DNA of 64,000 nt from a phage. Shown here in pieces: positions 8,948 through 15,130 of the stretch. The DNA is taken from the sequence record PZ476263.1; one strand, given 5' to 3'. How positions within the stretch are numbered: position 1 is the first letter of the stretch; each line of letters begins with the position of its first letter. The notes below the pieces were generated by a model. That model made no database searches, was not told the DNA's origin, and was given only the letters and a program-made list of their open reading frames with translations. The position numbers and the translations under genes are program-made.

Positions 8948-9160
8948 CTATTCTTTGTATACTACAACAGATTTTTCTTTTGTGTACCAGCCCTTAACAA
9001 TCTCAATTGCTTGTTTTGCTTCAGTGTAGCTTTCAAAATCTTTGTGTTCATGAGGTCCAAGGCGAACAGTCATGAAAGGAGTAAACCAGTGGGGCTTATA
9101 CTTAACTTGATAATACGTTGAATTATCTAACCTTTTAAATTTTATAATCTTAAATTTCAT
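8948..9160 (-). CDS. hypothetical protein
   Basis: ORF track, 70 aa. Confidence 0.4.
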   Translation of the reverse strand: MKFKIIKFKRLDNSTYYQVKYKPHWFTPFMTVRLGPHEHKDFESYTEAKQAIEIVKGWYTKEKSVVVYKE

Positions 9161-9630
9161 TTGTCCTCCCAGTTACCCGTCTTATACCCCGTCATAAATT
9201 GTTCAATATCGTATGCTGATTTAATGTTCCGATTAACGAAGTCCATCCACTCAGGAAATAAGGCCGTCATCATCATGTGTATTTCATCGTCAATTATCTC
9301 AGTCCCTTCTTCTTCGAGATAATCTCTTACAACAATAGGCATAAGGATGTGTACTCTTTTGCCTTTAAATTCAACGACTTTTGTACATAACATACTGTCT
9401 CCGTTTTCAGAAGGTATCCAAGTAAAACCGGATTCATTCATAGACACTCGAAATTTATCGTAGATACTCGATCTAGAATGCAACTCCAAGCAAAATCTAC
9501 GTTCACTGGATAGGTGGTGTTTGTTATCTTCATGGAGGATGGTGGCTTTTCTTCCTTTGTTTTTACCACGAAGGATCCTTACTGTTTCTCCTGCGGCAAA
9601 CATATCAATTCCTTTCTGAATCATCCACAA
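9157..9630 (-). CDS. hypothetical protein, possible distant member of the FFEDP...FP family
   Basis: 157 aa; C-terminal IIDDEIHMMMTALFPEW resembles the family motif. Confidence 0.45.
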   Translation of the reverse strand: MWMIQKGIDMFAAGETVRILRGKNKGRKATILHEDNKHHLSSERRFCLELHSRSSIYDKFRVSMNESGFTWIPSENGDSMLCTKVVEFKGKRVHILMPIVVRDYLEEEGTEIIDDEIHMMMTALFPEWMDFVNRNIKSAYDIEQFMTGYKTGNWEDK

Positions 9631-10145
9631 AACCTCTCTCTTAATTTATCTCTGATATTATTAAGTCCTTCATTAAGCTTGGGCAATTCTGTCACAATAC
9701 CAGGGAAGAGTACATCAAAGAAATTCACTTCTTCCAATGTCGGACGACTCATGTCTTCAAAGAAGTCTTCTACCCTAATAAAATCTGTCCAAACTTTTGC
9801 TCTTCGTACTGCCAAGTGAACAGGTGTTCCATCAGAGAAGATCATCCAAGATATGCGAACATCATCAGTCTTAGGCTTAGGCAGTGTCGATATACAGAAC
9901 CGAGGCTTGTCTCTTAGGTTTGTCGAGGTCTGGCCCCAAAAACTCCCACGACCATACTGAAATTTGAACTTTACCTTCCCCACTTTCTGGGTGGTCTTCA
10001 TATCCCTGCGGAAGTCATGACCTTCTGTATATACAAGGTTCCGAATGTATTGATGTCGGCTACGGATGTGGCTCCATTGGGACCACTCCATAGATAGACG
10101 ATTCATTATACCCCTGAAATTTCTGAAATCAATCTCCGTTATCAT
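9621..10145 (-). CDS. hypothetical protein, FFEDP...FP family member
   Basis: Motif VEDFFEDMSRPTLEEVNFFDVLFPGI. Confidence 0.5.
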   Translation of the reverse strand: MITEIDFRNFRGIMNRLSMEWSQWSHIRSRHQYIRNLVYTEGHDFRRDMKTTQKVGKVKFKFQYGRGSFWGQTSTNLRDKPRFCISTLPKPKTDDVRISWMIFSDGTPVHLAVRRAKVWTDFIRVEDFFEDMSRPTLEEVNFFDVLFPGIVTELPKLNEGLNNIRDKLRERFCG

Positions 10146-10389
10146 CTTCTTCTTTATCCTCAGCTACTGTAGTCTTTGGTGGCTCTGCCCCAACAATTTC
10201 AAATTTGGCAACACCCAGTACAACAACATGCCCCAGTGAGGATACTCCTGTCCAAGCTGTGCCGTTCTTTTTAGTGCGGTCACCAGTGATATCACAGAAA
10301 TCATTCTTCATCTCTGTAGCTTCGTATACTTTACCCTTTTGAAATACGTCTGTAAAGTCTTTAATTACATTTACACATTTGATTTCCAC
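10129..10389 (-). CDS. hypothetical protein
   Basis: ORF track, 86 aa. Confidence 0.4.
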   Translation of the reverse strand: MEIKCVNVIKDFTDVFQKGKVYEATEMKNDFCDITGDRTKKNGTAWTGVSSLGHVVVLGVAKFEIVGAEPPKTTVAEDKEEDDNGD

Positions 10390-10398
10390 AATCTCTCC

Positions 10399-10683
10399 TC
10401 ACCCTATTGAAAAGTTAACTACCAGTTCTCGCCTTTGTATATGAGATTTCTCGATAGCAATGTTTTTATAAAAATCTAAAACTTCGTGTAATCTTATAGC
10501 TCTCATCTTCAACTCATCGCTGAATAAGCCTCTATCCTTAGTTAACCAAGCAATTTCGTTAGCCTCTTCTTCAAGAGACGAGTCCTCAAAAATACCTTTT
10601 ATACTCAGGCGATCAATTGTTGAACAAATTGCTTCAAATTCGTACCAGTTCATATCTTCAATTTCCAATTTAGCAATCCTCAT
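10399..10683 (-). CDS. hypothetical protein
   Basis: ORF track, 94 aa. Confidence 0.45.
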   Translation of the reverse strand: MRIAKLEIEDMNWYEFEAICSTIDRLSIKGIFEDSSLEEEANEIAWLTKDRGLFSDELKMRAIRLHEVLDFYKNIAIEKSHIQRRELVVNFSIG

Positions 10684-10804
10684 CTTTATTTGAACGTTTT
10701 AATCGAATTTAAGGCCCCTAGAAGCCACGTAGGATTAAATTTAAAGAGAGGATGATAAATCACCTTACCTATCTTTAAACTTCGTCAGAGGCTTTCTGAG
10801 AGCG

Positions 10805-13339: not shown

Positions 13340-13517
13340 TAAGCTGGGGTCATTTTATCATATTATGAAAAAATACAACAGAGAAGATCACTATGTTTTA
13401 TCATATTGTGAATTTTTACAACATTCGTGTTAAAGTGGTATTAATTAAAATAAATAGATTTTAATACATAGAAAATACCTATGAACCAGATCTGATCCAT
13501 AGGCATTACATTTTTAT

Positions 13518-14102
13518 TCATTTTCGAAGAGAAGCTTTCTCTAAAACTAAGGATGTTCGAGGTTCAGCCAATCCTGTGCCATAAACATACCAATCACCGC
13601 TCAAATTTTGCCTTGCACCATAGGAACCGAGTTCAACTCCTCTGTATTTAACATCGTAACCGCCGTTTTCAGATACGATGACCATGTTATCAAAATCTAA
13701 ACCTAAGTGATTCAGGAGTTGAGTCATTTCTCTTGCCATATCTAAGCTCTCCATATTTCCTGACTTCTTATCCTTTGTGGGCTGGTAAAGCTCAAGTTTC
13801 AAAAATACATTTTGATGAATATCGTCAAGCTCGGCCTCGTCACGATAGCAAGGTGTCAGTGCCTGTAATTTTCCAGCAGGTAGGATTCCATCTTTTTCAA
13901 GCTGTAAAAAAGATTGCTCGGCGGAAGCAACAGCGCTTTTGCCGTTTGGCTGTTTAATTCTACCATCTTTAACGTCATCAGGGCAAGTTTTGGACATCAC
14001 ATCTTCATCAACATAACCTGGGACAGTTGTTTTTTCAAACCCTCTCTGCTCCCAAAAGTAAGAGGCTTCAAAAATAACCGCTAAACTAATTGGACTGTTC
14101 AT
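13518..14102 (-). CDS. seryl-tRNA-synthetase-like class II catalytic core fragment (truncated)
   Basis: TPCYRDEAELDD...FLKLELY matches class II motif 2 (SerRS TPCFRSEAGS...), and YGTGLAEPRTSLVL matches motif 3 (SerRS GSGLAVGRTLVA); only 194 aa, no tRNA-binding arm. Recalled motifs, not searched. Confidence 0.5.
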   Translation of the reverse strand: MNSPISLAVIFEASYFWEQRGFEKTTVPGYVDEDVMSKTCPDDVKDGRIKQPNGKSAVASAEQSFLQLEKDGILPAGKLQALTPCYRDEAELDDIHQNVFLKLELYQPTKDKKSGNMESLDMAREMTQLLNHLGLDFDNMVIVSENGGYDVKYRGVELGSYGARQNLSGDWYVYGTGLAEPRTSLVLEKASLRK

Positions 14103-14111
14103 GTTATCTCC

Positions 14112-14618
14112 TTAGCGTTTACCGTTTTCAAATGCACGTTTGGTTATAGATGACATTTTGATCAGATCGTCTAATGTCACACCCTCATGGCTACTTTTTA
14201 GATAGCCTTCAATTGCACCGATCAAATCAGAAAGCTCTACCAGCTCCATGATCTTGCATCCTTGACTTTTGGCATCCAGTAATTCTTGAACCTCTTCAAG
14301 AATTTTTTCTGCTGTACCATATTGATGCTTTTCAATTTTAGCAAGATGATAACCGACAGATTTAGGATTTCGAGTGCTCGCTTCGAAGTTTCCACCAGCA
14401 ACATACCAATTCTTGTTGATAGTTACTATAAAAACTCCAATATCTTTTACATTGATACAGCTATAATCTTCACATGCCGACTTTGTTGTTTCAAATGGAT
14501 AATTGTCATCAACGCCTTTTTCTGCGACGAGATTCAACTTCAATCCGTGCATATCGAGCACACCGTTACGTCGTGCAACTTCCAGCAGATCTCGGTATTT
14601 GATTTGTTTATTTTTCAT
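14112..14618 (-). CDS. hypothetical protein
   Basis: ORF track, 168 aa. Confidence 0.45.
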   Translation of the reverse strand: MKNKQIKYRDLLEVARRNGVLDMHGLKLNLVAEKGVDDNYPFETTKSACEDYSCINVKDIGVFIVTINKNWYVAGGNFEASTRNPKSVGYHLAKIEKHQYGTAEKILEEVQELLDAKSQGCKIMELVELSDLIGAIEGYLKSSHEGVTLDDLIKMSSITKRAFENGKR

Positions 14619-14644
14619 TTTATCCTCTTTTTTTTTTGTTTAGA

Positions 14645-15130
14645 CTATGAAGCAGGCATACACCCCAACATTCTCCAACAATAATACCTTGTATTTTTAT
14701 CATGGTCAATATGATTTACGGGTCCTATCCTATTGCAACCGCAACATTTTTTCTCCTCTCTTAGATAATCTATGCTACAAGAGTGTGGGTGGTCGAAAGC
14801 ATCTCTCATCTCGAAACATAATTCAAGAAGCCACTTGAACCTCTTGGGGTAAGCAACTGAAAGCAATTCAAGTTCTTGAAAAGTAGGATTAACTGGGTCT
14901 TCAAAAAAGTCAAGCATGTCTTCATAAAGTATAACATTCTTAACTTTACCATTCTCAATTTCATAGGAGAAATCTTCTGTTAACCTTACCGTAACCTCTT
15001 TTACAAATAATTTATCTTCCTCATTTCTTCCCAGGTGGTCTTCGATCCATTTTATAACGAAGAATCTGCTTCTTTGAACATCCATGTTCAAAATTTCAAG
15101 CATATCTTCAATGCTTAAAGGTCTTTCCAT
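14645..15130 (-). CDS. hypothetical protein, FFEDP...FP family member with Cys/His-rich C-terminus
   Basis: Motif MLDFFEDPVNPTFQELELLSVAYP plus C-terminal CCGCNRIGPVNHIDHDKNTRYYCW. Confidence 0.5.
   Translation of the reverse strand: MERPLSIEDMLEILNMDVQRSRFFVIKWIEDHLGRNEEDKLFVKEVTVRLTEDFSYEIENGKVKNVILYEDMLDFFEDPVNPTFQELELLSVAYPKRFKWLLELCFEMRDAFDHPHSCSIDYLREEKKCCGCNRIGPVNHIDHDKNTRYYCWRMLGCMPAS

Follow-up and report, generated by a model that had tools for sequence, protein, structure and literature searches.

One superfamily of small proteins with a shared sequence module in a Vequintavirinae phage and its relatives

The 64,000-nucleotide stretch of sequence record PZ476263.1 analyzed here (the window) is part of a large lytic myovirus of the subfamily Vequintavirinae, and its minus strand carries six small genes, named here by their left-hand coordinates (14645, 12297, 11854, 11507, 11062, and 9621), whose divergent products share one motif. 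These genes almost certainly constitute a real, homologous family, to which 9157 is a probable seventh addition. With a probability of about 0.45, we take the products to be an old, phage-specific family of small, soluble, non-virion proteins that would act by binding rather than as enzymes, built on one alpha-beta-alpha scaffold.

Similarity and layout of the family genes

A preliminary description of this region had proposed that the six open reading frames (ORFs) carry a common motif and encode paralogous, otherwise divergent small proteins. Both proposals are borne out, as the ORFs exist on the minus strand and are tied together by hidden Markov model (HMM) searches and by significant profile-profile similarity (hhalign, 75-96% probability). 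Single-sequence comparison links just 11507 and 14645 (phmmer E 1e-4). An iterative HMM grown from this pair against the 663 six-frame ORFs of the window gains 9621 (E 0.0019), 11062 (0.0033), 12297 (0.0039), and 11854 (0.0051), and picks up no unrelated ORF. For comparison by hhalign, subfamily profiles were enriched with orthologues from seven related genomes, and comprised A (11507/14645), B (9621/11854), C (12297), D (11062), E (the CR3 gp183 type), and F (the C-terminal half of 9157). Probabilities reach 96% for A-B (E 4.5e-9), B-C (E 3.2e-9), and D-E (E 1.4e-9), 87% for A-C (E 3.8e-6), 82% for B-E (E 1.1e-5), and 75% for A-D (E 2.6e-5); no significant direct match was obtained for B-D, C-D, or C-E (0.4-6%), so that D and E connect to the other subfamilies solely via A and B. 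When the 125 minus-strand ORFs of at least 60 amino acids (aa) were compared with the family profile by hhalign, the six members scored at least 97.7%, figures inflated by the presence of these six in the profile; 9157 scored 66.5%, 36910-37572 scored 36%, and all others fell below 3%.

Over 53 non-redundant sequences from eight genomes, the signature of the family reads h-x-(E/D)(E/D)-(F/Y)-F-x-(D/N)-P-x-x-(P/I)-T-x-(E/D)-E-h-x-(L/M)-(F/L)-E-x-L-(Y/F)-P-(E/D), in which the second Phe is invariant; a beta-hairpin preceding the C-terminal module completes the definition. Six window genes carry the signature, with YG in place of the final YP in 12297 and a three-residue insertion that renders the 11062 motif degenerate; in 9157 it has decayed to YLEEE...ALFP. 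The members and the ORF enclosed among them are as follows (nt, nucleotides; pI, isoelectric point).

14645-15130, minus strand: member A-Zn, 161 aa; motif at aa 72-95, nt 14846-14917, MLDFFEDPVNPTFQELELLSVAYP; phrog_12113
12297-12815, minus strand: member C, 172 aa, beginning MSNRNIQ; motif at aa 110-134, nt 12414-12488, VIDEMFENATHPTDQELDFFEMVYG; phrog_12009
11854-12300, minus strand: member B2, 148 aa; motif at aa 99-122, nt 11935-12006, LEDIFLDPNEIEDSEYEMFKTLYP; phrog_12686, also phrog_12307 (1e-4)
11507-11857, minus strand: member A-s, 116 aa; motif at aa 62-85, nt 11603-11674, ILDFFEDPLKISLDEFMLLDVSFP; phrog_21419, 30227, 13666, 19834
11355-11510, minus strand: hydrophobic ORF of 51 aa, not a family member, inside the array with ATGA overlaps on both sides
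11062-11358, minus strand: member D, 98 aa, beginning MSSLRY; motif at aa 19-45, nt 11224-11304, REDFFECLETSEEKLEHEWRLFEIAYP; phrog_15823
9621-10145, minus strand: member B1, 174 aa, pI 9.8; motif at aa 125-148, nt 9702-9773, VEDFFEDMSRPTLEEVNFFDVLFP; phrog_12307
9157-9624, minus strand: probable member F, 155 aa; divergent module with motif at aa 99-124, nt 9253-9330, and an N-terminal KOW domain at about nt 9421-9624
36910-37572, minus strand: possible distant eighth member, 220 aa; C-terminal MDQYFDDPEAPTHGEFLMALALEG at aa 176-199, nt 36976-37047; phrog_12410 (unknown function)

The genes are less contiguous than the run of five first described. Four of them, with 12297 at the head, form a single block of overlapping stop and start codons (12297-11854-11507-[51-aa ORF]-11062) that is interrupted by the 51-aa ORF; 9621 and 9157, three genes along from the block, overlap as a second pair; and 14645 stands apart, its start overlapping the 3' end of a gene for an RlaP-like nucleotidyltransferase. 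Within the block, 11854 begins with TTG and overlaps the stop codon of 12297 as TTGA, and the overlap between 11507 and 11854 is ATGA. Database homologues, together with the gene calls on metagenomic contig L009 (a close relative carrying the same genes at 93-100% amino-acid identity), place the starts at 12815 rather than 12842, at 11358 rather than 11406, and at 9624 rather than 9630, and these are likely the true ones. The shorter form of 12297 is further supported by a terminator-like element on the minus strand at 12833-12858, a GC-rich hairpin followed by TTTTTATT, which lies 18 nt upstream of the 12815 start and overlaps the longer ORF start at 12842. The same hairpin suggests a transcription boundary ahead of the family block. 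The 51-aa ORF occupies the same position in L009 (ratio of nonsynonymous to synonymous substitution rates, dN/dS, 0.23), and a 55-aa ORF is found there in a second metagenomic contig, L012. It is strongly hydrophobic, probably encodes two membrane helices, and together with a membrane protein encoded upstream of the block (12863-13339, phrog_12909) hints at a membrane connection.

The Cys/His-rich tail attributed to 14645 in the preliminary description is conserved, in that eight of its residues (C105, H114, H116, C118, C129, C132, C151, and C157) do not vary among six homologues. It spans aa 105-159 (nt 14654-14818) and follows N-terminal helices, a three-strand beta-meander, and the motif module. 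The tail has no match in Pfam, short beta-strands are predicted within it, and its eight Cys/His residues could hold two zinc ions.

Apart from a KOW domain fused within 9157, no member matches a known unrelated domain. This domain, found in 9157 only, accounts for the first ~70 residues, of which residues 14-33 match Pfam KOW (PF00467) at 24.7 bits against a gathering cut-off of 22.3 (E 2e-5). Homologues of the C-terminal half are encoded by separate 71-aa genes which adjoin a separate KOW gene in phages UPEC06, A73, LTH01, and CR3, and a profile of this group aligns with subfamily A at 90% (hhalign, E 1.6e-6) over 58 columns that include the beta-hairpin before the motif. Thus 9157, at first listed as a possible member, is better described as a probable one by virtue of its C-terminal half; its motif is degenerate. 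The KOW and module genes are fused as one 155-aa ORF in the window (9157-9624) and in L009, and are separate in UPEC06 (L001 7929-8292); the fusion suggests that the two parts work together. Residues 10-67 also weakly match the T4 MotB-like family of KOW-containing, early DNA-binding proteins (phrog_7007, E 0.0026), which are similar to 9157 in overall length. As this match is limited to the KOW part, and the C-terminal half of 9157 is the family module rather than the MotB C-terminal domain, we reject membership of the MotB family; nor did 9157 have a sequence match in the PDB (phmmer) or a tblastn match in T4-like phages. The more distant 36910-37572 lacks the YP of the motif and reaches E 0.08-0.6 by HMM and E 3.8e-4 by hhalign, and is no more than a possible member.

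Predicted fold and the role of the motif

An AlphaFold2 (AF2) model of 9621, built from an alignment of 11 sequences that includes the 11854 type, describes a single domain with a predicted local distance difference test (pLDDT) score of 88.3 and a predicted template modeling (pTM) score of 0.85. Three N-terminal helices lead into a five-strand beta-meander with a basic RRDMK..KVKFKF hairpin, and then into the motif region, modeled as a strand, a short helix (H125-127), a proline-containing loop, a helix at 137-146, and two more helices. Helix 137-146 begins right after the PT dipeptide of the motif and ends at its F-P turn, and the pLDDT of 92-96 over residues 121-170 places the motif in an ordered region. 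The best AF2 model of 14645 (pLDDT 85) has the same order of elements, with short strands in the Cys/His tail. Comparison of whole proteins, which covered 9621 (modeled reliably) and 14645 (one good model of five), finds secondary-structure elements in a common order, and Foldseek links 9621 to a 149-aa protein of phage phiTE at 18% identity. Structure prediction, as the preliminary description had proposed, thus yields a confident model for 9621, but a less secure one for 14645 and no recognizable fold relative.

Conserved positions in the family are mostly hydrophobic, proline, or acidic, with one invariant Phe. As they include no conserved pattern of His, Ser, or Cys, they do not look catalytic, and this composition, together with the high model confidence, suggests that the motif residues are buried. 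We regard it as rather likely that the motif serves to determine the fold of an ordered domain. It would be neither a catalytic site nor a flexible peptide for docking, but the core that is conserved in the helical C-terminal part, with the module running from a beta-strand and a short helix (xDFF) through an acidic loop that contains proline to a helix starting at PTxEE, a Y/F-P turn, and one or two further helices. The single-domain model of 9621 and its pTM are consistent with packing of this helical part against the beta-meander.

Known domains offered no close counterpart. No sequence relatives of the family were found in Pfam, NCBIfam, or the PDB, and the best hit of a profile search against PDB sequences, helix 1-loop-helix 2 of a POU homeodomain, was insignificant (E 0.23). 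A homeodomain or helix-turn-helix identity was rejected, since there was no significant match that included a recognition helix and a basic surface. The EF-hand calcium-binding loop has the form D-x-(D/N)-x-(D/N/S)-G-x-(I/L/V)-x-x-x-E and lies between two helices; the family motif departs from this 12-residue consensus, and that reading was also set aside. Pfam DUF5621 (PF18532) matched one of 23 members at 13.6-14 bits against a cut-off of 25, and matches to HEPN, TraE, and PRKCSH, each in a single member, were dismissed as chance.

Distribution and evolution of the family

The nearest database relatives of the window are Escherichia phages UPEC06 and vB_EcoM-LTH01 and Septuagintavirus phages A73, W70, A5-4, and A7_1. 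Similarity at the DNA level is patchy, the region from 9.0 to 15.5 kb showing ~80% identity over 12%. At the protein level, UPEC06, LTH01, and A73 have seven members each, with a collinear orthologue for every window member. Enterobacter phage F1M1E and CR3 have seven plus two weak ones, POP15 eight plus two weak ones, and phiTE five, for a range of 5-9 copies per genome across the clade of Certrevirus, Septuagintavirus, UPEC06, LTH01, and the phage studied here. Searches with tblastn recovered individual subfamilies in 22-31 of 50,697 phage records, all of this clade, and the hosts of family-bearing phages are Escherichia, Cronobacter, Pectobacterium, Enterobacter, Klebsiella, and Pantoea. 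Seunavirus KE22 has one C-type copy (E 1.8e-7) in its syntenic region, and in Mydovirus KB57 no family copy was found; the expansion is therefore specific to the clade, and not to this phage. Subfamilies A-Zn, C, B2, and B1 are present in every genome examined, whereas member D is duplicated in the UPEC06-like phages and is related to the CR3 gp183 type of subfamily E.

Beyond cultured phages, a six-sequence HMM profile searched exhaustively against 1.84 billion representative proteins returned 19 clusters, all of 73-240 aa, which is an undercount because two metagenomic contigs carry members not among them. L012 (26.6 kb) has at least eight members and keeps the window's gene order in the core block, and L008 (5.8 kb), which matches no cultured phage, has five members in a row, including one (P0011) with two modules. 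Other searches were less productive: word-indexed database searches with module alignments found just one or two near-identical proteins, a single-sequence database search with 14645 found four orthologues, and a related-locus search with the 14645 alignment found nothing in IMG/VR.

Family proteins retain 28-51% identity to their UPEC06 orthologues, compared with 60-93% for nearby enzymes. Relative to L009, all seven genes have dN/dS values (0.02-0.20) in the range seen for their neighbors, and we therefore consider these to be real genes, each kept by selection. The lineage-specific expansion put forward in the preliminary description is upheld in that the clade has multiple copies where Seunavirus has one and Mydovirus none, but positional orthologues of each paralog in all seven relatives examined, together with purifying selection, indicate that it is neither recent nor private to this phage. 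Tandem duplication would have taken place in the common ancestor of Certrevirus, Septuagintavirus, UPEC06, and this phage, starting perhaps from a gene like the single C-type copy of Seunavirus. As all paralogs are kept as positional orthologues under purifying selection, each probably has its own, non-redundant job.

In four relatives, members are fused to an N-terminal tail-fiber repeat unit (..LP....GD.Y.I....Y.W....W...G..GP.G), which matches phrog_3904, the PHROG of the most abundant protein of unknown function in the W70 virion. The window and the UPEC06-like phages are without this subfamily, and the tblastn matches of P0011 to phAPEC8-like tail-fiber genes are due to its N-terminal repeat unit, not to the family module. 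The four fused members are:

CR3 gp189 (L004 14039-14545)
POP15_221 (L007 15662-16141)
L012 2602-3051
P0011 (L008 1000-1722)

Possible functions, genome setting and known systems

The cellular context of the family must be read from several indirect clues. Family protein sequences contain no evident signal or membrane segments, and all members except 9621 have a pI of 5-6. By genome region and listed PHROG identifiers, no gene of the family block appears among the 26 proteins of the CB7 virion (PMC7344957) or the 28 of the W70 virion (PMC11370258) listed from electrospray ionization tandem mass spectrometry. Genes from position 1 to ~48.6 kb lie on the minus strand, leftward, and the structural module runs rightward from there. 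A scan for sigma-70-like near-consensus promoters (at most one mismatch in 12) found 17, all on the minus strand, against 4.3 expected on both strands; ten of these lie at 32.3-48.6 kb (32304-48626), next to the point of divergence from the structural module, and this is probably the true early region. The scan lent no support to early promoters beside the family genes, near which there are just two (16922 and 12572). The "early" label of the preliminary description is an assumption, and the leftward arm that holds the family genes also carries the RCC1-like genes described below, which have homologues in the W70 virion.

Several genes with RNA- or tRNA-related functions are interleaved with family members (13518-16242 and 18232-19506, minus strand), and this cluster may constitute a tRNA repair or maintenance module:

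18232-19506, minus strand: CCA-adding enzyme with an HD domain
15115-16242, minus strand: RlaP-like nucleotidyltransferase
14112-14618, minus strand: MazG/PRA-PH-like protein
13518-14102, minus strand: short HisRS-like protein, phrog_4806

In our preferred explanation, family proteins would bind conserved machinery of the host or the phage during intracellular development, and serve as its adaptors, inhibitors, or regulators. Partner specificity would come from the variable N-terminal halves and from add-ons such as the KOW domain, the Cys/His tail, the basic beta-hairpin and, in relatives, the tail-fiber repeat. Taken by itself, the non-enzymatic binding or adaptor role is tentative, and any specific class of target is doubtful; the add-ons and the RNA-related neighbors hint, if loosely, at the machinery of transcription, translation, or RNA. 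Several considerations weigh against this explanation. Detectable similarity between subfamilies spans just 28-58 columns. Homology over the full length, by an alignment that joins 9621 and 11854, is confined to that pair, and elsewhere rests on similar predicted architecture. The 14645 model is unstable, the other four of its five models having a pLDDT of 43-49, and both AF2 alignments are shallow (11 sequences). Finally, individual paralogs may be enzymes despite the lack of a catalytic motif.

The foremost alternative, suggested by the preliminary description and in our view unlikely, is an anti-defense arsenal in which each paralog blocks a different immune system, and the module serves as scaffold for rapidly diversifying inhibitor surfaces. 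Such a role would suit small, multi-copy, tandem genes, as seen also in L008 and L012, that diverge between genera faster than enzymes do, vary in copy number through gains, losses, and fusions, and adjoin genes with RNA-repair or tRNA-related domains (the RlaP-like nucleotidyltransferase and CCA-adding enzyme). However, anti-defense genes are usually patchy in distribution, whereas the constancy of A-Zn, C, B2, and B1 among phages of Escherichia, Cronobacter, Pectobacterium, and Enterobacter marks them as core rather than accessory genes, and their dN/dS shows no excess over neighbors. Nor was similarity found to any characterized protein in Pfam, PHROGs, NCBIfam, the PDB, or BFVD, no dedicated anti-defense library having been searched. 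This core-gene conservation counts mildly against an arsenal of fast turnover and, spread over six host genera and accompanied by purifying selection, fits conserved targets in host or phage machinery better than strain-specific defenses. A more ambitious and likewise unlikely proposal is that the proteins are modular adaptors of a hitherto unseen alpha-beta-alpha fold that dock via their helical module on a common hub (a host machine such as RNA polymerase or the ribosome, or each other), the variable halves and the KOW, Cys/His, and fiber-repeat add-ons recruiting different targets, or else a new multi-target anti-defense arsenal; if true, either would amount to a new host-manipulation system defining a phage clade.

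Quite unlikely, in our estimation, is that the paralogs are subunits of a hetero-oligomer joined via the helical module, or assembly factors for structures such as tail fibers. The order C-B2-A-s-small hydrophobic ORF-D is the same in the window, L009, and L012, the stop-start overlaps (ATGA/TTGA) link the genes of the core block, all paralogs are retained, and the repeat-fused members of four relatives, together with virion RCC1-like genes ~2 kb downstream, could speak for such a role. Against this, overlaps of four bases are a frequent feature of compact phage genomes, and the family genes are distant from those of the tail fibers.

Improbable, too, are nucleic acid-binding regulators in which the helix-loop-helix part reads DNA or RNA in the manner of a helix-turn-helix or homeodomain. 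The weak resemblance of the family profile to the POU homeodomain segment (LEKSFLENQKPTSEEITMI), the KOW domain and MotB-like match of 9157, the potential zinc-binding tail of 14645, and the basic character and Lys/Arg-rich hairpin of 9621 would each be in keeping with such regulators; the acidity of most members argues against direct DNA binding by the module. Lastly, the notion that there is no family, and that a short motif arose by chance or convergence in unrelated small ORFs, could appeal to the single pairwise link and the three non-significant subfamily pairs, but is effectively refuted by the transitive profile links, the clean separation of members from all other window ORFs, the repetition of the module in neighboring genes of every related genome and in two metagenomic arrays, and its equal predicted secondary-structure context in two subfamilies.

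Other features of the window deserve brief mention. Three tandem paralogs with beta-propeller repeats of the RCC1-like kind (Pfam WD40_RLD, RCC1), 380, 416, and 328 aa long, lie at 3923-7208 on the minus strand, in the same non-structural leftward arm as the family genes. Their homologues W70_237-239 were found by mass spectrometry in purified W70 virions (PMC11370258). Compared with L009, the RCC1-like pair shows 67-86% identity and a synonymous divergence (dS) of ~1.75, amid surrounding genes that are all 95-100% identical. The anaerobic ribonucleotide reductase NrdD (23166-25253) is intact at 695 aa in the window, and is called as two pieces ~240 nt apart in L009 (1-1966), which may reflect an intron, another insertion, or an assembly artefact. 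A ClpP-like protein of the phage is encoded at 20429-21280. The plus strand carries five tRNA genes at 51065-52824 (Met-CAT, Tyr-GTA, Gly-TCC, Gln-TTG, and Pro-TGG); a set of Met, Tyr, Gly, Gln, and Pro is also reported for Escherichia phage Jab, the closest published phage, ~83% of whose genes have no assigned function (PMC13538427).

Searches of the literature turned up neither a functional study nor any other discussion of the family. At least 17 PHROGs are matched, all of unknown function, with primary matches at E 1e-13 to 1e-37; those beyond the primary ones are 35286, 21765, 19749, 35690, 27485, 14060, 29710, and 12463. Cross-matches among PHROGs hint at the link, as 12307 matches both 9621 and 11854, and 21419 both 11507 and 14645. 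What are separate orphan families in that resource are joined here, via the common C-terminal module, into one superfamily. The new elements of this work are the joining of these families, the definition of a signature, and the prediction of a fold; multi-copy families of small uncharacterized proteins are themselves already familiar in large phages. The collapse of at least 17 orphan PHROGs, and of seven to eight genes per genome, into one superfamily with a signature, a predicted fold, and orthology groups makes the family a tractable target for experiments. Because 5-9 copies are kept under purifying selection in phages that are therapeutic candidates (those of E. coli, Cronobacter, Pectobacterium, Enterobacter, and Klebsiella), the family likely matters for infection. 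If its proteins turn out to inhibit host machinery or to act as its adaptors, they would provide new reagents and a new fold; should they be dispensable, the region could be removed in phage engineering.

Among known systems, the closest include the p32/Mam33 (gC1qBP) fold and the polo-box-like alpha+beta binding domains. More broadly, tandem multigene families of small accessory proteins are a general phenomenon in large lytic phages and in poxviruses. The family described here resembles these in its tandem duplication, its divergence outside a conserved core, and its variable copy number, but differs in that its paralogs are of long standing, keep their positions between genomes, and evolve under purifying selection, instead of being products of recent amplification.

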